From assembly GCF_000317125.1 (NCBI RefSeq), contig NC_019695.1, positions 358,336 through 422,335 of the forward strand: a DNA stretch of 64,000 nt, given 5' to 3'. The DNA comes from Chroococcidiopsis thermalis PCC 7203 (GTDB lineage Bacteria > Cyanobacteriota > Cyanobacteriia > Cyanobacteriales > Chroococcidiopsidaceae). A program made the position numbers and the translations under genes. The notes below the pieces were generated by a model. That model made no database searches. It was not told the DNA's origin and worked only from the letters and a program-made list of their open reading frames with translations. This document shows positions 4,681 to 19,685 of this stretch, in pieces. Position 1 is the stretch's first letter. Each line of letters begins with the position of its first letter.

Positions 4681-5956
4681 ACTCCTTGCTCCCAGCTCGT
4701 CCCTGCTCCCTCTTCAGCGTTTCAATCTCAGCGGAACCGTCATCTTTGAGCCAAGCAATTTGTTGGATGCGGCGCTGGCGGGCGTAGGTGCGGATTTCCT
4801 CTGGTTGGCGATCGCCTAAGTCCATTTCGACTCGCAACCCAGGAGTACAGCGTAACTTTTCTGCATAGGCAAAAGCAGCCGCGTAAGCTGCTGGCGATCG
4901 AGCGACAACGAGCCAATCACTAGCGGGTGTGGCTTGCGGTAAGCGATCGGCAGACAGTAAGGCTTGTTGTAAATCTTCCGTGTTGAGGACAAAGCCAACC
5001 CCCGGAATTGTTTTACCTTGGGGATGATACAGTCCTAAAAGTTGGTCGTAACGACCTCCTTGCCCTAAAATTTGCGGTTGAGCTGTTAGATTGTCGATCG
5101 CTGCATTGCCGATGACTTCAAACACGATCCCCGTGTAATAGTCAAAGGTGCGAATCATGCTCAAATCTAGAATGATTGGAAAGTTTTGCGAGTTTTGGTT
5201 TGAGTCTACACTAAAGCATCGATCCAAAATCTCAACTAGCGATTTGAGTCGGTGTAAAGCTGCTTGTTGTGGTGCGTCTAAACTTAATTTTGTGACTTTT
5301 TGCAATACATCTGCGGGATGTCCGCGCAAATCGAGCATCACTAAAGCTCTAGCTCGTAGATCTTCGCTTAAAGGTAGAGTTTCGAGCGTGACGCGATCGA
5401 GGTGAGCGATCGCCTGTCGAACGCGATCGCGCCCAGATGCGGGGAAAGAAGCTAATAATGATTGGGTAATTTCCGCTTCGCCCAGAATCAGCTGCCAGTT
5501 GTGTAAACCCAATTCATTCAAGCACTCAGCCAGCAGTAATAACACCTCAGCATCAGCCAGCAATCCTTCGCTACCCAGCAACTCCACCCCAGTTTGATAA
5601 AACTCCAACTGGCGGTTGTGACTGCTATCGGGCGTGCGACAAAAGACGTTAGCGTTGTAGTAGAGGCGTTGCGGAAAGGTCGCTCCTGCCATCCGAGTTA
5701 CAGCAGTGCGAGCGATCGAGGCTGTCAATTCTGGACGCAACCCCAATTCTTCCTCGCGATCCTGAACTTGGATCACCGTCGATCGCTGAATTGCTCCTCC
5801 AGCCATCAGCGTATCTAACCGTTCGAGAGTTGAAGTAATGATGCGGTGATAGCCCCAACGATGAAATACCTGCTGCAACCGTTCTTCGACCCAGTGTTTC
5901 TGAGCCACATCTAAGGGTAATAAATCTCTTGCTCCCGCAGGTGATTGGTAGACCAT
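4679..5956 (-). CDS. hisZ: ATP phosphoribosyltransferase regulatory subunit HisZ (HisRS paralog)
   Basis: Class II aaRS-like core with MVYQSPAGARDLLP, ITSTLERLD, LRPELTASIAR and GGRYD. The ITxTLExLD and LRPxxTxxIAR forms fit HisZ better than HisS. The start is placed at the internal Met (MVYQSP) so the gene abuts the upstream stop at 5967. Confidence 0.65.
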   Translation of the reverse strand: MVYQSPAGARDLLPLDVAQKHWVEERLQQVFHRWGYHRIITSTLERLDTLMAGGAIQRSTVIQVQDREEELGLRPELTASIARTAVTRMAGATFPQRLYYNANVFCRTPDSSHNRQLEFYQTGVELLGSEGLLADAEVLLLLAECLNELGLHNWQLILGEAEITQSLLASFPASGRDRVRQAIAHLDRVTLETLPLSEDLRARALVMLDLRGHPADVLQKVTKLSLDAPQQAALHRLKSLVEILDRCFSVDSNQNSQNFPIILDLSMIRTFDYYTGIVFEVIGNAAIDNLTAQPQILGQGGRYDQLLGLYHPQGKTIPGVGFVLNTEDLQQALLSADRLPQATPASDWLVVARSPAAYAAAFAYAEKLRCTPGLRVEMDLGDRQPEEIRTYARQRRIQQIAWLKDDGSAEIETLKREQGRAGSKE

Positions 5957-9141: not shown

Positions 9142-10182
9142 CTAGCTGACAACGCCCATTTCTTGTTGCGCTTTGGCTTTAGCAGCTTTGAAGTCGCTAG
9201 CCATTTGCTCGCTTTGGTCGCTACTGAGGTTGTTACGAATTGCGGTAAACATGTCGAACTCTTCTTGACGAATGTGATCGCCCACAGCATCCATCAGTTG
9301 CTTAACTTTATCTTTGAACTGCGAATTAGAAGGATCGATCGCTTTAATCTCATCTAATTTGGTTCTGAATTCAGCTTGCTCGCTGTAGAGTTCTTGAACT
9401 TTGTCTTCTGGATAGAAAGCACGCACTCTAGGATAGACTACTTCCTCTTCTGCGATCGAATGAGCCAACAGATCTTTGTAAATTTGACCGAAGTACTCTT
9501 GGATCTTCTGAGGATTGTCACTCTGCAACAACTCGGTGAACAGTGTATTCACTTTGCTGTGATCTGCACGAATCAGATCTTGGACGTTCATATCCTTCTT
9601 ATCAGAAGTTTGGGTAACGGCACTACCGACTACGCCAGAGAAAGCCGCAACCGCATCTTGTACGCGCGCCCACAGCCCTTGGTCTGCATCCTTGCCAGTC
9701 AGCTCGCGAGTCCCAACTTGCTCTAAGATCCCTTTGAGTTGTTCTTGGTGCGCTCTGTTTTCAAAGTTAACTGTATTCAAAGGACCGAACGCTATATCGA
9801 CATCTGCACCTACGACTTGAGCAGCTTTGTGCAGCATGATACCAGTCATTGCTTGTCCGTGTTTGAGCAGTTCGTGCTGAGCGAACTTGTCATACAAAGA
9901 CAATTCAGAGCCTTGCATCATTTGCTTGGTCTTTTCGATTAGCTCTTGTGTAACCTTTCTGGGTTCTCCCTGAATGCCATATTGTACGATGACAGTCTCA
10001 ATAACGCCCAAGTTCTTGCGATCGGAATCGAGCATTTCTTGAAGCCGCTTTTGAATTTCCGAATCGTTGATTTGTCCTAGCAGTGTTTCTTCGTTAGAAA
10101 TAATTAACTCTTGTAGAGCTTTCACGTCAGCTAGTTTAACCGCAATAGCAGAACGCTTGGTATCGTCTAATGTTACGACCAT
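9142..10182 (-). CDS. Hemerythrin (HHE cation-binding) domain protein
   Basis: C-terminal region with H/E-rich helices (DLLAHSIAEEEVVYP, DHIRQEEFDMFTAIR) resembling the hemerythrin-like fold. The N-terminal half could not be identified. Confidence 0.55.
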   Translation of the reverse strand: MVVTLDDTKRSAIAVKLADVKALQELIISNEETLLGQINDSEIQKRLQEMLDSDRKNLGVIETVIVQYGIQGEPRKVTQELIEKTKQMMQGSELSLYDKFAQHELLKHGQAMTGIMLHKAAQVVGADVDIAFGPLNTVNFENRAHQEQLKGILEQVGTRELTGKDADQGLWARVQDAVAAFSGVVGSAVTQTSDKKDMNVQDLIRADHSKVNTLFTELLQSDNPQKIQEYFGQIYKDLLAHSIAEEEVVYPRVRAFYPEDKVQELYSEQAEFRTKLDEIKAIDPSNSQFKDKVKQLMDAVGDHIRQEEFDMFTAIRNNLSSDQSEQMASDFKAAKAKAQQEMGVVS

Positions 10183-10549: not shown

Positions 10550-11290
10550 ATGTCAGAACAACAAGGATTGGGAGAACAAGCGCTGAATAAAGCAGCAGAA
10601 ATCGGATTGTCTAGTCAACTCGATGAAGTAGAAAAGTTAGATGTAGATATTAAAACAGATCCGCTCAAAGCATTGCAAGGACAAGTAGACTCGGTGGCGA
10701 TCGCAGGTGAAGGAATGGTGATGCAAAAAGACCTGCGAGTAGAAAAGATGGATATGCAGGTGGATAGCGTTGCCATTAACCCCCTCAGTGCGGCAATGGG
10801 TAAAATCGAACTTACTCAACCAACCCAAGGTAAGGCTCGCGTGGTTTTGACAGCAGCAGACATCAATCGTGCTTTCAACTCCGAGTACATCCGTCAGCAA
10901 CTGCAAGCCACAAAAATTGAGATTAACGGGCAACAGATGACCGTAGTTCCGCAGCAGGTAGATTTCCAACTACCAGGTGAAGGAAAAGTGTCCCTGAATG
11001 CCAACATCCGCTTGCAGGAAACTAACGAAACAAAGCAAGTAGCTTTTACTGCCGTACCGGAAGTTGCATCTGGAGGGCAAACTGTCACCTTAAAAGACGT
11101 GCAATATGGAGACGAACAAGCACAATCTCCAGAGTTAACTAAGGCTTTAGTAGATGCAACCAGTGAAATTTTGAATCTGAGCAACTTTGACCTCGAAGGG
11201 ATCTCCCTCCGTATCAAAAATTTACAGGTCGAAGCAGGAAAGATCGCCCTAATTGCAGAGGCTAATGTTACGCAAATTCCATCAGCATAA
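10550..11290 (+). CDS. DUF2993 (LmeA-like) family protein
   Basis: 246 aa with the repeated beta-rich pattern typical of DUF2993. Assigned from memory of the family, not from a search. Confidence 0.5.
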   Translation: MSEQQGLGEQALNKAAEIGLSSQLDEVEKLDVDIKTDPLKALQGQVDSVAIAGEGMVMQKDLRVEKMDMQVDSVAINPLSAAMGKIELTQPTQGKARVVLTAADINRAFNSEYIRQQLQATKIEINGQQMTVVPQQVDFQLPGEGKVSLNANIRLQETNETKQVAFTAVPEVASGGQTVTLKDVQYGDEQAQSPELTKALVDATSEILNLSNFDLEGISLRIKNLQVEAGKIALIAEANVTQIPSA

Positions 11291-11400: not shown

Positions 11401-11946
11401 ATGGACACACAACAAAAAACAGGAACGCCACCATATCCTGACATTCCTGCCCTGATTGAGAATGACGAGCGCGAATACCGCGATCCTGGTATACCTAGTA
11501 CAGTGGCAGTGTTGGGTCATCCGATCCACCCATTGCTTGTGACCTTACCGATCGCTTTTCTATTGGCATTGGCTGTCACTGATGCAGTCTATTGGTTGAA
11601 TAAAGACTCTTTCTGGGCAAGAGCATCTTTTTGGTTAGTAGTGGCTGGGTTTGCCACGACTTTACCAGCAGCCCTGACAGGTTTGATGGACTTCTTGAGA
11701 ATCGATCGCGTGCGTAAGCGTACTGCTGGTTTGGCGCATTTGGTTCTCAACATTACTATTATTGTCTTGACGGGTATTAATCTCTTACTCCGGCTTAACA
11801 ATGTAGTAGGGGCTATTTTGCCTACAGGCTTGACACTTTCACTCATTACTGCAACACTTTTAGGACTGTCCGGCTGGTATGGCGCAGAGCTAATCTATCG
11901 ACATAAAATTGCTGTAATTGGCAACAGTAGCCGTTCAGAACCATAG
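11401..11946 (+). CDS. DUF2231-like integral membrane protein
   Basis: Four predicted TM helices with a conserved HP(I/L)HP motif (LGHPIHPLLVTLPIAF). Confidence 0.55.
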   Translation: MDTQQKTGTPPYPDIPALIENDEREYRDPGIPSTVAVLGHPIHPLLVTLPIAFLLALAVTDAVYWLNKDSFWARASFWLVVAGFATTLPAALTGLMDFLRIDRVRKRTAGLAHLVLNITIIVLTGINLLLRLNNVVGAILPTGLTLSLITATLLGLSGWYGAELIYRHKIAVIGNSSRSEP

Positions 11947-12239: not shown

Positions 12240-12464
12240 ATGCATAAGAAAGTTAAAGTGACACCAAATTCCAAGCATCCAGCTATTAAAGAAGAACCTG
12301 ATGGCAGTTTAACGGTTCATTTGAAATCTCCGCCCATAAATGGTAAAGCTAACCAAGAATTAATTCAACTATTAGCTAAAAAATTTGAAATCCCAAAAAC
12401 TCGAATTAAAATTAAATCCGGCTTGGTATCCCGTCAAAAATTAATTGAAATTGACTTGAATTGA
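12240..12464 (+). CDS. DUF167 (YggU) family protein
   Basis: 74 aa; [26 protein letters not shown] matches the YggU/DUF167 pattern (..V.PGA..G.AN..L...LA). Confidence 0.6.
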
Positions 12465-12947: not shown

Positions 12948-13670
12948 ATGGTTATCTCGTCCGACAATTTGCTCTTTTCTACTCACTCAAAACCAGGTAC
13001 ACAAGCAGAATATTCCTTAAAGAAGAAGTATCCCCAGAAGCACGACCATTACAGCTTTGATGACTACTTCCAATTTCAACCGAACACGGGCATTGTCACC
13101 GATTGGCACGACCAGCGCCATCTATTTGCCACAGAAGACTTCATCGTAGGATTAATTGAGGGATTGGAAGAAGAAGTCGGTAGCGCTTCTACAGTCTTGA
13201 TGTACAACATTGGCTTCGAGTGGGGAACCAGGGATGCCAAATTCTTTCAACAGTGGTTTGAGCAGGAATATGGCAAGAACGTCAAAGAAGTCAATTCCCT
13301 GTACATGCTAGAAGCATGGTGGTGGCCCTTCACCGCTCAAGGCTGGGGCAACTGGGAAGTCGATATGAGCGACCATAAAAACGGGTTCATGTTCGTCAAC
13401 ATCTTCGATTCTGCCGTAGCTAGAACATTGGGCGATGTTGGTAAACCAGTTTGTCATATCTATGCGGGATTATTTGCTGGATTCTTTAGCGATCTCGTTA
13501 AAAAAACCTTGAGTTGCATTGAAATTCAGTGCTACTCAATGGGAGAAACATACTGTAAATTCCTCTTGGGTACAAAAGACCGGATTGATGCTGCTGCCTT
13601 CTGGCACAACGAAGGTGCTACAGCTCGCGATATTGAAAAGCGGCTGCGTCATGGAGAACGGTTAGGATGA
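12948..13670 (+). CDS. V4R-domain protein (operon gene 1)
   Basis: C-terminal PVCHIYAGLFAGFFSDLVKKTLSCIEIQCYSMGETYCKFLLG matches the V4R consensus PVC....G...G........E..C...G...C.F. Paralogous to gene 4 (14742-15410). Confidence 0.6.
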   Translation: MVISSDNLLFSTHSKPGTQAEYSLKKKYPQKHDHYSFDDYFQFQPNTGIVTDWHDQRHLFATEDFIVGLIEGLEEEVGSASTVLMYNIGFEWGTRDAKFFQQWFEQEYGKNVKEVNSLYMLEAWWWPFTAQGWGNWEVDMSDHKNGFMFVNIFDSAVARTLGDVGKPVCHIYAGLFAGFFSDLVKKTLSCIEIQCYSMGETYCKFLLGTKDRIDAAAFWHNEGATARDIEKRLRHGERLG

Positions 13671-14188
13671 GGAATCGAAATGTTTTGCTGTGCCAATCGG
13701 TACAGCAATTTTTGCACTCTTGTAACTGGGACGGACAAGAGATTGAGGATGCCGATTACCCGCAACATCAACTTAGCGAGGAATTCCTATCTTCTTGGGA
13801 ATGCTTGACAGTTCAACAATTCTTGCGGCTTTGTGGATGGGAAGGAGAACAACAGCCAGCCAAGAGTGATGTGCCGATTCCAGCGCCACTACAAAATCAA
13901 TCGCCGCTACAGCATTTTACTCCCATCGCCAATCCTCATGCAGCTTGGTTGCGGCTTTCCGTCAAAAAATTCTTCAGCCATTGCAATTGGCAAGGGCGAC
14001 CAGTTGAGGATGTTAACTGGGGACAACTAGACCCCTATGCCCGAATGAAACAACGAGTCAGAGATTGTTTTGGGTATCTTCCTTGGGAAGGGAATCCAGA
14101 AATTGGAACTCTGCCCAAGTCTGCGACTAAGCTACCGCCACCTTTAGCTCCCGAACCGACCTTTTCAGACTTATCAGATCTATTCTAA
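13667..14188 (+). CDS. Cys/Trp triple-repeat protein (operon gene 2)
   Basis: Three copies of a ~14-aa motif: SVQQFLHSCNWDGQ, TVQQFLRLCGWEGE, SVKKFFSHCNWQGR. ATGA overlap with gene 1. Confidence 0.5.
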   Translation: MRNRNVLLCQSVQQFLHSCNWDGQEIEDADYPQHQLSEEFLSSWECLTVQQFLRLCGWEGEQQPAKSDVPIPAPLQNQSPLQHFTPIANPHAAWLRLSVKKFFSHCNWQGRPVEDVNWGQLDPYARMKQRVRDCFGYLPWEGNPEIGTLPKSATKLPPPLAPEPTFSDLSDLF

Positions 14189-14200
14189 AGCTGCAAATTT

Positions 14201-14686
14201 ATGTACCCAGAAATCAGAGCCATACTTGATGATGCTGAAGAACGCTATCTTAGGCTAGAAGAAATAGTTGCTTTGAAGCATCATGTTTCATCCTTTGCCC
14301 AACGCTTGCAAGTTTATGAAGTGCTGCGGGATAACGAAATTGCTATTTTTCAACCGATCGCTGACCAACTGCTCGTAGCTTTTCCCCAACACAAACAAGA
14401 AACCATCGAACGCGCCTTAAAAAATTGGCTGGGAACGCTACGTTACTGTGCAATGGCAATGCTGTTGAATAATCCCATGTTTCTCCAACATCGTTTGCTG
14501 GAATGGCTGACGGACATCATTCAAGTTCACCAAACACAAGGCATTGATACAACCCTTTATCAGTTCCTCATAACTCGCCTGCCAGAAATTTTGGCTGAGG
14601 AACAAATGGCTCTGCTGCAACCGTTCTTAGCTCAAGTGGAACAAGCTGTCATGGGAACTTGTAGTGCAGCCACAGTGCCAGCATAA
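14201..14686 (+). CDS. Phycobiliprotein-fold (globin-like) protein lacking the Cys-81 equivalent (operon gene 3)
   Basis: 161 aa and all-helical, with DAEERYLRLEEI and LGTLRYCAMAML segments aligning to phycobilisome-protein helices. No Cys at the bilin-attachment position. Confidence 0.5.
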   Translation: MYPEIRAILDDAEERYLRLEEIVALKHHVSSFAQRLQVYEVLRDNEIAIFQPIADQLLVAFPQHKQETIERALKNWLGTLRYCAMAMLLNNPMFLQHRLLEWLTDIIQVHQTQGIDTTLYQFLITRLPEILAEEQMALLQPFLAQVEQAVMGTCSAATVPA

Positions 14687-14741
14687 GTATCACTCGTCAG
14701 CATAACTCACTATCAAACAAGCAGAAGCAACAGACAAAATC

Positions 14742-15410
14742 ATGATTACTGTCGCCGATTTAATCAAAGACGAACGCTTACCAGGAAATTATTTTGCCTT
14801 TGATGCCTACATTCAGGGTGATTTTGAATCAGGTTTGCTGGAAAATCGCCACGGCGATCGCCTCATAGCAATTCCAGACACGCTGATTCAATCGATTTAC
14901 ACCGCACTCAACCAAGAAACAGGTCAAGCTTCCGGTGTAGTACTTGCCAATTGCGGGCGCTGGTGGGGCAAAAATTTCTACGCTCGGTTCGTCGAACAAG
15001 TTAGCGAGTACTACTCTAAACCGATCGATCAAATGGAGATGGTTGAGTTTACTCAGTGTCTCAGACAGTGTTGGAAAGCTCATGGTTGGGGAACTTTTGA
15101 ATTAGATTTGAGCTACTACCAACAAGGATTTTTAGTCGTCAAAACCCAGAATTCTCCCTACGCCAAGCAAGCACCCCAGAGCAAAAGACCAGTATGCTAT
15201 TTTGAAGCAGGTATCCTCCGCGCTTTCTTCAGCCAACTGACAGGACGAGAACTTCACTGCCTGCAAACAACCTGCGAATCTCTCGGAGCTGAGTACAACC
15301 ACTTTGTTCTAGGCTTAGCACAACGAATCAAACCAGCCGATGCTTGGTTAGAAGAACAGCAAGAGCATGAAATTATCATGCACCGACTCTGCAATAGTTC
15401 TAATCAATAA
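14742..15410 (+). CDS. V4R-domain protein (operon gene 4, paralog of gene 1)
   Basis: PVCYFEAGILRAFFSQLTGRELHCLQTTCESLGAEYNHFVLG is a V4R-like C-terminus. The N-terminal half also aligns with gene 1. Confidence 0.6.
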   Translation: MITVADLIKDERLPGNYFAFDAYIQGDFESGLLENRHGDRLIAIPDTLIQSIYTALNQETGQASGVVLANCGRWWGKNFYARFVEQVSEYYSKPIDQMEMVEFTQCLRQCWKAHGWGTFELDLSYYQQGFLVVKTQNSPYAKQAPQSKRPVCYFEAGILRAFFSQLTGRELHCLQTTCESLGAEYNHFVLGLAQRIKPADAWLEEQQEHEIIMHRLCNSSNQ

Positions 15411-15439
15411 AGCAATTAGCAATTAGCAATTAGGAAAAC

Positions 15440-15922
15440 ATGGCAAAGACTGTCAGACTAGAACCAATCGGTGAAGAAACCTCCATTCAAACGAATGGCA
15501 ACATCCTATCTGTTCTGTTAAAAAACGAACTGAATGTGTTGCATGAGTGTGGCGGTCGAGGAATGTGCGCTACCTGCCATGTTTACATCAAAAGTGGTAT
15601 GGAAAGCTTATCTTCACCCAGCCGACGCGAACGGCGGACAATTGAGGTCATTACTTCTGCCAACAATCATTCTCGCCTCGCTTGTCAAGCTTTAGTGATT
15701 GGTGAAGGTGTAGTCGTTGAATTACCTGCTGGTACGTATGTCAGTGCAATTGATGATATTGAGTCTCTCATCGGCACGCGGGCAGAACAAAACATCCTTC
15801 ACCCTCTAGACGGTAGAATCCTTGTGGAAGCAGGTAAGTTAGTTACCCGTTCGATGATTACTCAACTTCAAGATACTCGTACTGAGGTTTCTGAGTATAT
15901 GAATCATGCCAGCGATGCTTAA
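15440..15922 (+). CDS. [2Fe-2S] ferredoxin, adrenodoxin/putidaredoxin type (operon gene 5)
   Basis: CGGRGMCATCHVYI ... LACQA cysteine pattern, plus a ~60-aa C-terminal extension. Confidence 0.7.
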   Translation: MAKTVRLEPIGEETSIQTNGNILSVLLKNELNVLHECGGRGMCATCHVYIKSGMESLSSPSRRERRTIEVITSANNHSRLACQALVIGEGVVVELPAGTYVSAIDDIESLIGTRAEQNILHPLDGRILVEAGKLVTRSMITQLQDTRTEVSEYMNHASDA

Positions 15923-15967
15923 GCGCTAATAGTCAAGATTTTTTATTGTCCAGGAGGAGAAAAGTTT

Positions 15968-16441
15968 ATGTTAAGTCAGTTAGCCCGCTTAACCGTAGAA
16001 GCGGACGGTCGCTACGCTACTTCAGAAGAACTTCAGTTTCTTAAAGATTACATTGAGTCTCTTGATACTCGTGCAAGCGCATATCAAAAAATCCAAGCTG
16101 CTGAGGCAGAAGTTCTCAGTCAGTTGGAGGCAAAGTGGGCTGCTAACGAGAATTTGTTTGGGCAAGGTAACAATAAACTCAATGTTTCAACCTGCCAACG
16201 CGATCTGAAAAATATGATACGTTACACAGCCACAACTGTATTGAGTAGCGACCTCGATCGCCTGCGAGAAAGTTGTTTGCTTTGGTATCAAACTATCGTT
16301 CGTGCTTACAAATACGGACATATTGCTAACATCACATATCCATTACTAAATGAGTTGATGAAACAGTTTCTATCTGCTGAAGAAGCAGCGCTTGCATCTC
16401 CAGTTTTAGGACTCAACCAAGTGATTTTGGGTAAAACATAA
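15968..16441 (+). CDS. Allophycocyanin-like phycobiliprotein-fold protein retaining the Cys-81 equivalent (operon gene 6)
   Basis: ADGRYATSEELQF resembles the N-terminal phycobiliprotein helix (ADARGEFLS.EQL). STCQRDLKNMIRYTATTV aligns with AACLRDMEIILRYV, the bilin-binding Cys region. There is an AGGAGGA RBS 8 nt upstream. Confidence 0.6.
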   Translation: MLSQLARLTVEADGRYATSEELQFLKDYIESLDTRASAYQKIQAAEAEVLSQLEAKWAANENLFGQGNNKLNVSTCQRDLKNMIRYTATTVLSSDLDRLRESCLLWYQTIVRAYKYGHIANITYPLLNELMKQFLSAEEAALASPVLGLNQVILGKT

Positions 16442-16475
16442 CTGGTAGTTGGTAATTGGTAGTTGTTAGTTATTT
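16441..16475. repeat. STRR-like (GGTAGTT/GGTAATT)n
   Basis: Visible tandem heptamers. Confidence 0.8.
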
Positions 16476-16539
16476 ATCGATCGCCATTACCCATTACCCC
16501 GTTACCATTTCCTTAATTGAAAATTCAAAGTAAGTTACT

Positions 16540-17526
16540 ATGCAAGACAATTTCACAGCACCAGCAAATAAATATCCTTGGTTAGAAAAGGTAGAAATCG
16601 CATCGGTCGTTGGTTCAATTGGTGGCGCGATCGCTTCTTTCATGCTCAACCAGGCAGCAGTTGCCGCAATTCCGCTCTCTGTAACTGTCGCGCTCAACTT
16701 AACTAATCGACGGATACTGTTAGATCATTTAAAACAACACAATTTAGCCACGATCGCTCAAGTTTTGCAAGAGCAGGTCAAAACTCAATCTAATCTAGAA
16801 AGACTGAGTGAAGAATTGGGAACATTCGAGCAACAAACAGAGAAAAAGCACGGTGAAGCGCAAGCTGGAATTAAGTTGTTAGACGAACATCTTCAGCTAA
16901 CAAATAATAACTTGCAACAAGCGCGAGAAAATAGCGATCGCAGTATTGCTCAACTCCAACAGCAAGACGCAAACATTCAAAATCAGTTACAAACGCAACT
17001 AGAAACGCTCAACCAGCAGCTAGAGCAGCTCCAGCAACAAACTAATATGCTAGTACAGGAGCAAAACAACCGTTTAATGAACGAACAAGCTAAGATTGCT
17101 AGAACTGTAGATGCTTTGCGCGATATCGAGACTTGCACTCAAAGTTTGCGGATCAATCCGATTTCTGCTAATGCTTTCTTCAATCGCGGTTTGAGTTATC
17201 AACGTTTGGGCGATCGCGAAGCAGCAGTTGGCGATTTTACAGAAGCAATTCGAGTTAATCCTCAATATGCAGAAGCTTTTCAAAGTCGCGGTCTTGCCCA
17301 TGCCGATCTCGGTGATAAAAAAGCGGCAGTACGGGATTTACGCGAAGCCGCCAGACTATTTTTTGAGAGCGGTGAGATTGATAAATATCAAATTGCTCGC
17401 GACCTCGGTAAGAAGTTTCACGATTTAGATTCGCCTAGTGAAGCAGAAGCGCTCACAGAGGTAGCTTACGAAAGCTCAATGGCAGGCTCGTTTGAAGATA
17501 TTGCCTTAGAGTCTTTGTTCTCTTAA
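16540..17526 (+). CDS. Coiled-coil / TPR-repeat protein with an N-terminal TM segment
   Basis: Q/L-rich coiled coil followed by TPR-like repeats (AFFNRGLSYQRLGDREAAVGDFTEAIRVNPQYAEAFQSRGLAH). Confidence 0.65.
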   Translation: MQDNFTAPANKYPWLEKVEIASVVGSIGGAIASFMLNQAAVAAIPLSVTVALNLTNRRILLDHLKQHNLATIAQVLQEQVKTQSNLERLSEELGTFEQQTEKKHGEAQAGIKLLDEHLQLTNNNLQQARENSDRSIAQLQQQDANIQNQLQTQLETLNQQLEQLQQQTNMLVQEQNNRLMNEQAKIARTVDALRDIETCTQSLRINPISANAFFNRGLSYQRLGDREAAVGDFTEAIRVNPQYAEAFQSRGLAHADLGDKKAAVRDLREAARLFFESGEIDKYQIARDLGKKFHDLDSPSEAEALTEVAYESSMAGSFEDIALESLFS

Positions 17527-17633
17527 TTTAGGTCAATTGGGAGGCGATCGCGCCGTAACGAAATCTGCCCGATCTATGTAACGTCATTTTTGTTTAGTCC
17601 AAAACTAAGCAGGACTTACGCAGTCGATCCCCC

Positions 17634-17700
17634 AAACCCCCTTAAAAAGGGGGGACTTTAAGCCCCCTTTTTAAGAGGGGAACCAGGGGGGATCGAGATC
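17634..17700. repeat. Dispersed palindromic element GATCCCCC...CCCCTTAAAAAGGGG...GGGGGGATC
   Basis: Visible nested inverted repeats with G/C runs around TTAAAAA cores. Related copies sit at 35078-35112 and 47804-47912. Confidence 0.75.
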
Positions 17701-17746
17701 TCAGATTTTCTTGTGCGTAACTCCTGACTAAGGCAAAGTTGACCAA

Positions 17747-17785
17747 AATGAATTGGGGTTACATGACCCCAATTCTCAGTTATTT
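17747..17785 (+). terminator. Stem-loop GAATTGGGGT-tacatg-ACCCCAATTC followed by a T-rich tract
   Basis: Perfect 10-bp inverted repeat followed by tcagttatttt. Confidence 0.5.
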
Positions 17786-17984
17786 TCAATTTTTGAGCTG
17801 TCAGTCAGTGGATCGAGCCTGTTTTGGTATTTCAAGCATTTATAGAAACTCCGCTAAAAGACTAATATCTAAAATTAAAACTAGCAGATAGCAGAGCAGT
17901 CATAACAGATTTGATACAAAGCATTATATCGCTCTAATCGTTGTAACCGACACAAAAATTAAGATACTTTTTATCCTAAAAACT

Positions 17985-18863
17985 ATGAGTGAAACTTTAC
18001 CAATTTCCTCCAAATATCATATTTTAAAGCTAGTTGGACAAGGGCAATTCGGACGAGTCTACTGTGCTATTGATAAAAAAAATGGTAAAACTGTAGCACT
18101 TAAAGAACTCGACCAACAAAAGTTTCCCACGAAAAAGTTTTTACGAGAATTACATTTCTTATCTAGCTTGCAGCATCCAAATATCATTTCTTTCCAAGGT
18201 ATAGAGCATATAAAAAATGCAAGATTTCTGGTTATGGACTATTGCGAAGCCGGAACTTTGCGTAATTTCATGCAAAGCGATGACTTTAATCTCATTCACG
18301 GTTTGAAATTTATTACAGATATTCTTGCTGGACTGGGACACGCACACACTCGTGGTGTCGTTCACTGCGATATTAAGCCAGAAAATATTTTAATTAGTAT
18401 AGGTTCTACTAGCTACTTAGCTCGGATTTCTGATTTTGGTTTAGCAAGAGTTTGTCAAGAAATTTCTACAGATAAAATTATCTGTACTGGTTCTCCTGCA
18501 TATATGGCTCCAGAAAGATTTTATGGTAAATCTTCTCCAGCGTCAGATCTTTATGCAGTTGGAGTCATGCTGTACGAGTTGGTTTTGGGTTTTCGTCCTT
18601 TTTCAGGAATGCCAGGAGAATTGATGACAGCTCACATGAATCAAGCTGTGGAAATTCCTAGCGCTGTTCCGCTCTTACTACGTTCTACAATCTCCACTGC
18701 CATGCAAAAATTCCCTAACAAGCGGTTTCCATCAGCAGCTGAGATGATGAAGTCAGTGCAATTAGCCATAGAAGTAGAAAAAGTAACGTACGGTAATATT
18801 CCTCCTCTAAATATACCTTCTAATATTCCTTCATTCTCTTACCTAAATAGTACGCAAGCCTAG
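17985..18863 (+). CDS. Hanks-type Ser/Thr protein kinase
   Basis: GQGQFGRVY...ALKEL (ATP-binding Lys), HCDIKPENIL, DFGLAR, GSPAYMAPE. Locally AT-rich. Confidence 0.85.
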   Translation: MSETLPISSKYHILKLVGQGQFGRVYCAIDKKNGKTVALKELDQQKFPTKKFLRELHFLSSLQHPNIISFQGIEHIKNARFLVMDYCEAGTLRNFMQSDDFNLIHGLKFITDILAGLGHAHTRGVVHCDIKPENILISIGSTSYLARISDFGLARVCQEISTDKIICTGSPAYMAPERFYGKSSPASDLYAVGVMLYELVLGFRPFSGMPGELMTAHMNQAVEIPSAVPLLLRSTISTAMQKFPNKRFPSAAEMMKSVQLAIEVEKVTYGNIPPLNIPSNIPSFSYLNSTQA

Positions 18864-18962: not shown

Positions 18963-19685
18963 ATGAGCTACTTAGTTAAACCTGGATTCTCGACTTGTTA
19001 TTATATTCGTAAACTCTTGCTACAAAACGAAGAGGAATTGAAAACAATCTTGAGTCAAAAAGCCGGCTTTTGTTTCAACACACAAGAAACTTTAGAAAAG
19101 CTTTTAAGAGGAATTTATCTGGAAGAAACGATCGAACAACTTTTACAAACTCTTTATGCCGATACTACTGAAATTTCTACTAAAGTTGAAAAACTGGAAG
19201 TGTTAGTAGCCAATCATCAAAGAATTTCTGTAGAAAGTCCCCATAACTATCAAGGATTAGGCGAGATTAAACGCCAGATCTTATGGATATTAGGTTTTAA
19301 GCGAGTAGCTGTCAAGATTGAAGATATAGTTCAAGCCCTGGTTCAATTGAATGAATATAGTATCAATTACATAGGGCGCACGTTGACTATCAACACATGG
19401 AAATCAACTCGTCCTGATTTTGAATGGCTAAATTTATTTGAATTCGATCGGTTTGGCAAAATCACCTTTGCTGGACAAGGAAAGGATGTAGCCAATGTCG
19501 AACAACTCAATTGGTTACAAGAATGGATCGTTGGCTACGTCTGTCAAGTTGCTCAGTTCATCCGCGACTTTACAACTACAATTGAATATAAAAAAATTGG
19601 TGAATTACCGGAAGGGGTATTAATTACTCAAGTTACTTCTTACTCTCACTGGGTTGCTGCAAAACCGCGATCGGCACAAGTTTGA
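18963..19685 (+). CDS. Hypothetical protein, probably co-transcribed with the kinase
   Basis: 240-aa ORF with no recognisable motif. Same strand and the same AT-rich composition as the kinase. Confidence 0.4.
   Translation: MSYLVKPGFSTCYYIRKLLLQNEEELKTILSQKAGFCFNTQETLEKLLRGIYLEETIEQLLQTLYADTTEISTKVEKLEVLVANHQRISVESPHNYQGLGEIKRQILWILGFKRVAVKIEDIVQALVQLNEYSINYIGRTLTINTWKSTRPDFEWLNLFEFDRFGKITFAGQGKDVANVEQLNWLQEWIVGYVCQVAQFIRDFTTTIEYKKIGELPEGVLITQVTSYSHWVAAKPRSAQV

Follow-up and report, generated by a model that had tools for sequence, protein, structure and literature searches.

What do two proteins with the fold of the phycobiliproteins do when they are encoded among genes for V4R-domain proteins and a ferredoxin, and when only one of them keeps the cysteine to which a bilin chromophore is attached? 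This question is raised by a 64,000-nucleotide stretch of the Chroococcidiopsis thermalis PCC 7203 genome (contig NC_019695.1, positions 358,336 to 422,335). The whole stretch is hereafter called the window, and all positions are given in its coordinates. The open reading frame (ORF) list and Pfam matches delineate eight closely spaced genes on the + strand (12948–18863). The third encodes a globin of 161 residues without the bilin motif (gene 3, 14201–14686, +), and the sixth a globin of 157 residues with a C-X-R-D motif (gene 6, 15968–16441, +). A preliminary description, made from the sequence alone, had suggested that the two form an α/β-like pair with one pigmented subunit, or that their fold had been co-opted as a pigment-free sensor of the RsbR type.

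We conclude that gene 3 and gene 6 are very probably the orthologues of Slr0146 and Slr0149, respectively, in the Pap operon of Synechocystis, also described as a cyanobacterial cluster of globins associated with bilin biosynthesis (BBAGs). The genes belong to a named, published system, and their identity is already known and not a discovery; the preliminary description had missed their membership in the described, conserved slr0144–slr0152 cluster (PMC10151467, PMC6002478, PMC4853703). The present analysis contributes two observations on the globin families, namely the consistent loss of the Arg and Asp of the bilin motif in the Slr0146 type and the replacement of the Cys by Trp in many Slr0149-type proteins. 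For the explanation as a whole, that is, this identity together with the mechanism proposed below, we estimate a probability of roughly 60%.

Phycobiliprotein fold and bilin motif

Both proteins match the Pfam family PF00502 (Phycobilisome protein) above its gathering score of 22.2 bits, gene 6 with 49.6 bits (E 5.5e-13) and gene 3 with 35.7 bits (E 1.1e-08). No other PF00502-like ORF was found in the window. AlphaFold2 (AF2) models were built on family alignments, that of gene 3 from database homologues, and reached a predicted local distance difference test score (pLDDT) of 85.1 and a predicted template modelling score (pTM) of 0.77 for gene 6, and 84.0 and 0.76 for gene 3. Seven helices are present in each model, among them the X-Y helical hairpin at the N-terminus, which forms the α/β interface in phycobiliproteins. 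In Foldseek searches both models matched allophycocyanin chains over their full length. The matches of gene 6 include ApcA, ApcB and ApcD (probability 1.00, TM score 0.75–0.80), and those of gene 3 are full-length Apc and Cpc chains (probability 1.00, TM score 0.60–0.69). The top 50 PDB matches of both models consist only of allophycocyanin, phycocyanin and phycoerythrin chains. The phycobiliprotein fold is thereby confirmed in both proteins, with a match far beyond chance, and the common helical layout given in the preliminary description is borne out.

The candidate site of bilin attachment or coordination in gene 6 is C76-Q-R-D (codons 16193–16204, +), within the segment STCQRDLKNMIRY (residues 74–86). 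In a phmmer search of all PDB chains, it lies opposite the C-I-R-D or C-L-R-D of ApcB2, ApcF-type β-18 and CpcB chains. Cys76 falls on the chromophore cysteine of helix E (Cys-81/84), as the preliminary description had supposed from allophycocyanin. The corresponding position in gene 3 is occupied by A72-L-K-N (codons 14414–14425, +). In a profile of 18 gene-3 orthologues, A72 stands opposite the Cys of the ApcF 'SACLRD' and the ApcB 'AACLRD'. An hhalign comparison of the gene-3 family with the gene-6 family (Prob 99.2, E 3.5e-19, 151 columns) pairs A72 with C76, K74 with R78 and N75 with D79; against the phycobiliproteins of the PDB, the E-value is only ~1e-4. Both profile alignments thus agree that gene 3 lacks the Cys, Arg and Asp that hold the bilin, and the absence of a Cys at this site had been noticed correctly. 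The B-E loop is also shorter than in the Apc subunits; gene 6 has about 3 residues fewer there, and gene 3 about 8 fewer than ApcF.

The two proteins thus resemble ApcA, ApcB, ApcD and ApcF in fold, X-Y hairpin and length (about 160 residues) and, in gene 6, in a CXRD at the homologous position of helix E. They differ from these subunits in the shorter B-E loop, in having only 13–22% identity to solved phycobiliproteins, in the lack of an apc operon context and in failing the NCBIfam equivalog models. On these models, among them those for ApcA, ApcB, CpcB, CpeA and CpeB, they score 15–29 bits, roughly a tenth of the cutoffs of 225–279; the best values are 29.3 bits for gene 6 (apcB, cutoff 228) and 17.9 bits for gene 3 (ApcA, cutoff 270). 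The Pfam matches of the neighbours include no apc, cpc or linker gene. A canonical Apc or Cpc subunit is ruled out by these scores together with the genomic context of V4R, ferredoxin, TPR and kinase genes, in agreement with the preliminary description. The sequences are identical to public records of the same strain in which gene 6 is named 'phycocyanin' (AFY85894.1) and gene 3 'Phycobilisome protein' (AFY85891.1), and close relatives in other Chroococcidiopsis and Scytonema records carry the name 'allophycocyanin'. Since the equivalog scores fail, these names are misleading, and they flag a widespread mis-annotation of such genes as 'allophycocyanin' or 'phycocyanin'.

Orthologues in the Pap operon of other cyanobacteria

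The content described for BBAG clusters recurs in the window, where six consecutive genes on the same strand include two with V4R, one with Fer2 and two with PF00502. The intergenic gaps between these six genes are at most 55 bp, and one pair overlaps by 4 bp. The order of the whole cluster (V4R, unknown, globin, V4R, 2Fe-2S protein, globin, TPR, kinase) is that of the Pap operon of Synechocystis PCC 6803, and the Synechocystis-genus orthologues show the same motif split, with CRRD in the Slr0149 type and ALLH in the Slr0146 type. The Synechocystis-genus proteins are about 38–44% identical to those of the window (gene 6 about 44%, to the orthologues in loci L027 and L044), and the globins score 113–140 bits with phmmer. 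Two differences were found. The window lacks a plant-type ferredoxin at the slr0150 position, where a 98-bp gap stands in place of the 111-residue PetF-like ORF of L044; and its kinase consists of 292 residues with a kinase domain only, as compared to about 620–650 residues in Synechocystis.

In the literature, slr0144–slr0149 are described as encoding V4R, bilin-binding-domain and 2Fe-2S proteins (PMC9880817, PMC10151467). According to Rast et al., Wegener et al. in 2008 named the products of the slr0144–slr0152 operon photosystem II (PSII) assembly proteins, or Pap (PMC4853703; also PMC9145668), and loss of the operon is reported to lower PSII activity in Synechocystis. The product of slr0151 is a TPR protein (PMC4853703), and that of slr0152 is SpkG, which is required for phosphorylation of ferredoxin 5 (PMC11863333). 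Partensky et al. reported that the 'apcA' genes of Acaryochloris are slr0149 homologues, flanked by homologues of slr0144–0148 and slr0151–0152 (PMC6002478); an Acaryochloris 'allophycocyanin' among our matches (P0110) is a relative of gene 6 with 48% identity.

Rockwell, Martin and Lagarias in 2023 called the slr0149-type globins 'cyanobacterial BBAGs' and placed them outside the clade of light-harvesting phycobiliproteins, as a sister clade of BBAG-3 and BBAG-1 from non-photosynthetic bacteria (PMC10151467). They found CXRD in 'some' cyanobacterial BBAGs and 'one or two' globins per cluster, and regarded the function of these proteins as unknown and perhaps not conserved (PMC10151467). The window shares with the cyanobacterial BBAGs a CXRD globin clustered with a pair of V4R proteins and one Fe-S protein, as well as the absence of heme oxygenase and bilin reductase from the cluster, the latter unlike the pre-PcyA clusters. 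BBAG-1 and BBAG-3 need no lyase for bilin attachment and are weakly fluorescent, with quantum yields of about 3–7%, which sets these relatives apart from light-harvesting subunits (PMC10151467). In the main text of that paper, slr0149 is the named example and slr0146 goes unnamed, and neither the text nor one of its supplements contrasts the two globin types; that supplement mentions neither slr0146 nor Chroococcidiopsis. A search of the accessible literature found no later biochemistry on cyanobacterial BBAGs.

A genome scan with one genome per species yielded 80 loci, in which every ORF was classed with phmmer. The best genome matches were Chroococcidiopsis, with 99% identity. All eight genes follow the order of the window in Aliterella, Snowella, Synechocystis (L027, L044), Xenococcaceae/Pleurocapsales, Waterburya and Crocosphaera, the two Synechocystis loci being accompanied by more than 25 other colinear ones. 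A gene-3-type and a gene-6-type globin occur together in 64 of the 80 loci, and most of the exceptions are truncated contigs. Family hidden Markov models (HMMs) made from the cluster loci score the window globins at 238 and 214 bits, as compared to 36–50 bits for PF00502, a comparison that is partly circular in that the window sequences were included.

Two departures from the common architecture were observed. Five Thermosynechococcus loci (L026, L029, L038, L042, L051) have one V4R gene followed by two tandem CRRD globins, and their flanks lack an Slr0146-type globin, a second V4R gene and a ferredoxin. In Microcoleus and Tychonema (L008, L016, L019–L024 and others), the cluster is divided into two divergent units, one in which ferredoxin and an Slr0149-type globin come after a long kinase gene that lies on the other strand, the other with V4R, unknown, Slr0146-type globin and V4R genes, on the opposite strand and 1–2.5 kb away. 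No TPR gene was found between the units.

Judged by sequence conservation, the gene-3-type and gene-6-type proteins are distinct, stable families. Among 65 gene-3-type orthologues from the genome loci, the Cys site is occupied by Ser in 37, Ala in 18, Cys in 4, Thr in 3 and other residues in the remaining three, and the Asp site by His in 56, Asn in 8 and Asp in a single protein. A profile search of 1.84 billion representatives returned 343 relatives at E≤1e-3, 58 of them at E≤1e-30. Among the matches listed, the full-length proteins that score higher than about 115 bits with the gene-3 HMM have replaced the Asp by His, Asn, Gln, Tyr or others in all but one case (P0294), and CXRD-like motifs appear only in weaker matches that are nearer the gene-6 type or intermediate. 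The remainder of helix E in the gene-3 family is nearly invariant (W76, R81, Y82 and M85-A86-M87-L88-L89), and Cys83, in the sequence R-Y-C, is present in 50 of the 65 orthologues and replaced by Ser, Gly or Ala in 15. The Slr0146-type globins of four loci from Snowella and relatives (L006, at 5214–5720 and confirmed; L009, L013, L018) read C-L-C-H at the motif, so that the Cys is back at the canonical site and the Asp is still His. No fusion of a gene-3-type globin with V4R or another domain was detected; the longer matches P0273, P0282, P0388, P0328 and P0411 contain PF00502 only, and a further one, P0396, was discarded as a low-complexity artefact.

In the gene-6 family, D79 is invariant in two sets of relatives (121/121 and 83/83). 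C76 is present in 93/121 and 56/83, and Trp takes its place in 26 proteins of either set, amounting to about one lineage in three, chiefly Microcoleus, Tychonema and Waterburya. The Trp variants read WRVD, WRLD or WRRD (L008, L035, L036, L039, L043 and others), with the Asp kept, and their genomes have the canonical Cys in neither globin. Arg78 is often Gly, Val or Leu.

Remaining genes of the cluster and its flanks

The cluster opens with a V4R-domain protein of 240 residues at the Slr0144 position (12948–13670, +; PF02830, 78.2 bits, E 5e-22), of the 'V4R clade A' type, which likewise opens the colinear cluster in more than 40 genome loci, including those of Synechocystis. Its stop codon overlaps the start of an ORF for a 173-residue protein at the Slr0145 position (13667–14188, +), which matches no Pfam or NCBIfam family and is weakly conserved at the same position in related loci. 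Of all cluster members this protein shows the lowest conservation (25–140 bits with phmmer in related loci), and it contains four repeats of the form SV(Q/K)(Q/K)F(L/F)xxCxW(D/E/Q)G, with W-x-G at residues 21, 58, 108 and 140. Gene 3 is followed by a second V4R-domain protein, of 222 residues, at the conserved Slr0147 position (14742–15410, +; PF02830, 68.3 bits); the two V4R proteins are paralogues with 29% identity over 201 residues. The 2Fe-2S ferredoxin at the Slr0148/Fed5 position (15440–15922, +; PF00111 Fer2, 39.7 bits) has Cys at residues 37, 43, 46 and 82 and a C-terminal extension of about 60 residues; it scores 60 bits on the ISC-type fdx model, under the cutoff of that model, and is conserved as a 160-residue protein in nearly all related loci.

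Downstream of gene 6, a protein of 328 residues at the Slr0151 position (16540–17526, +) combines a coiled coil with TPR motifs (TPR_1, TPR_2 and related Pfam matches, residues 210–279), and its gene is conserved in the colinear loci. The last gene encodes the Ser/Thr protein kinase at the SpkG/Slr0152 position (17985–18863, +; PF00069, 172.8 bits). Kinases at this position in related loci have either 270–310 or 600–670 residues, the long ones being found in Synechocystis, Snowella and Microcoleus loci. The following ORF of 240 residues (18963–19685, +) was considered as a split-off C-terminus of SpkG and rejected, as no resemblance was found between it and the C-terminal region of the long kinases; it has no Pfam match. 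The 458-bp gap between the TPR and kinase genes contains a hairpin with an 11-bp stem (17750–17775), terminator-like on both strands, and the kinase may therefore be transcribed separately. Promoter and terminator scans of the region gave the same counts as shuffled sequence and are consequently not taken as evidence.

Upstream of the cluster lie genes for a 346-residue protein with a C-terminal hemerythrin HHE domain (9142–10182, −), an LmeA-like phospholipid-binding protein (10550–11290, +), a DUF2231 membrane protein (11401–11946, +) and a DUF167/YggU protein (12240–12464, +). As far as checked, these four have no conserved adjacency to the cluster in other loci. Among the ORFs at 7.0–8.4, 9.1–11.9 and 12.2–23.4 kb, no Pfam match to heme oxygenase or ferredoxin-dependent bilin reductase was found; the other families detected there are inositol monophosphatase, SNase, hemerythrin, LmeA, DUF2231, DUF167, NUDIX, HPPK and PBP.

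Possible functions of the globin pair

In the mechanism that we propose, gene 6 would bind a bilin, most likely phycocyanobilin, at Cys76, with Arg78 and Asp79 holding the pigment. Gene 3 would serve as its chromophore-less partner, pairing with it through the X-Y hairpins in the manner of α and β subunits, and the outcome would be a heterodimer with one chromophore. This heterodimer may be joined in a complex by the two V4R proteins, as putative binders of small hydrophobic ligands or tetrapyrroles, and by the Fed5-type 2Fe-2S ferredoxin. Such a complex would not harvest light. While photosystems are assembled and repaired, it would sense or handle tetrapyrroles, or work as a redox module, and the TPR protein and Ser/Thr kinase encoded next to it could modulate it. 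We put forward the heterodimer with one chromophore only tentatively, at somewhat less than even odds. Rather doubtful is the stronger form of this proposal, in which the heterodimer is obligate, gene 3 is a 'blinded' subunit with gene 6 carrying the single chromophore, and the pair together with the V4R proteins and the Fed5-type ferredoxin constitutes a redox sensor that responds to a bilin or tetrapyrrole and so gates the assembly of photosystems.

The α/β-like pair of the preliminary description stands in part. The X-Y hairpins are kept in both models, and the partners co-purify in Synechocystis: in passages of the supplement of Xu et al. (PMC9880817), a pull-down with Slr0149 fused to green fluorescent protein (12 peptide-spectrum matches, PSM) contains Slr0146 with 7 PSM and Slr0144 and Slr0147 with 6 PSM each, and these three are absent from the control columns of those passages. 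Direct pairing does not follow from it.

Several points weigh against the proposed mechanism. The pull-down reports co-purification within a complex, not a direct 1:1 heterodimer. The binding tests of Rockwell et al. covered only BBAG-1, -2 and -3 of other bacteria (PMC10151467), and no cyanobacterial member is known to bind a bilin. The change of Cys to Trp in about a third of the gene-6-type proteins and the frequent loss of Arg78 mean that covalent attachment cannot be essential to the function of the family. Furthermore, helix E shows stronger conservation in the segment LRYCAMAMLLNN of gene 3 than in its counterpart in gene 6, and so gene 3 could itself bind something. Finally, the link to PSII as opposed to photosystem I is disputed, and may depend on slr0150–0152 and not on the globins.

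The main rival holds that both globins are pigment-free structural or assembly scaffolds in a V4R/ferredoxin complex for photosystem assembly, the CXRD of gene 6 being an ancestral relic. The Trp lineages, the loss of Arg78 and the genomes without a canonical Cys in either globin favour this, as does the statement of Rockwell et al. on the function of cyanobacterial BBAGs quoted above. D79, which is kept in every relative of both sets, speaks against it. The equivalent Asp hydrogen-bonds the chromophore in phycobiliproteins (PMC10151467), and its invariance therefore argues for continued, possibly non-covalent, bilin binding; we regard the scaffold as unlikely. The strong conservation of helix E in gene 3, with Cys83 in most orthologues, could instead indicate that both globins bind a ligand, gene 3 taking a tetrapyrrole non-covalently or through Cys83, three helical turns along helix E, so that the pair would carry two different chromophores. 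The return of a Cys to the canonical site in some gene-3-type proteins (Snowella, CLCH) would fit this. However, the gene-3 type has His, Asn or Gln in place of the bilin-holding Asp and Lys in place of the Arg, its B-E loop is the one shortened by about 8 residues, Cys83 is exchanged in 15 of the 65 orthologues, and no experimental hint points to such a ligand, which makes two chromophores quite improbable.

The sensor of the RsbR type, a non-haem globin pair signalling to the adjacent Ser/Thr kinase without a chromophore, received no specific support. RsbR globins are distant relatives, forming only the distant outgroup of this globin group (PMC10151467), and kinase and TPR genes do lie downstream. 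Against this, neither RsbR nor any other sensor globin is among the top 50 fold matches of either model, all of which are phycobiliproteins; the phycobiliprotein-specific X-Y hairpin is kept in both; and many related loci either lack the kinase and TPR genes or have them elsewhere (also PMC10151467). We consider it very improbable. That the two are ordinary or minor phycobilisome subunits, similar to ApcD and ApcF or to AplA, can be given hardly any credence. The PF00502 matches, the public names and the allophycocyanin chains as best PDB fold matches would suit it, but the equivalog scores, the low identity, the neighbouring genes and the published phylogeny with slr0149-type globins outside the light-harvesting clade (PMC10151467) all contradict it. 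The preliminary description was therefore right to set them apart from phycobilisome core subunits, although they do belong to an already named family. AplA was compared by gene context alone: aplA is located among the genes of the phycobilisome rods, in marine Synechococcus between unk4 and cpcG2, a setting that differs from the V4R/ferredoxin context of the window pair. In 2004, Montgomery et al. reportedly described AplA as a phycobiliprotein-family member without a classical light-harvesting role.

With one CXRD globin and one motif-less globin, the locus offers a clear design for the biochemistry of bilin binding and pairing. In Synechocystis, the cluster affects PSII function. If the redox-sensor form of the proposal were true, the Trp lineages would hold their pigment non-covalently through the invariant Asp, and the pair would represent a living intermediate that stands between globins handling bilins and the α/β light-harvesting phycobiliproteins. 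The cluster is a candidate evolutionary link that leads from bilin biosynthesis in non-photosynthetic bacteria to the origin of the phycobiliprotein antennae.

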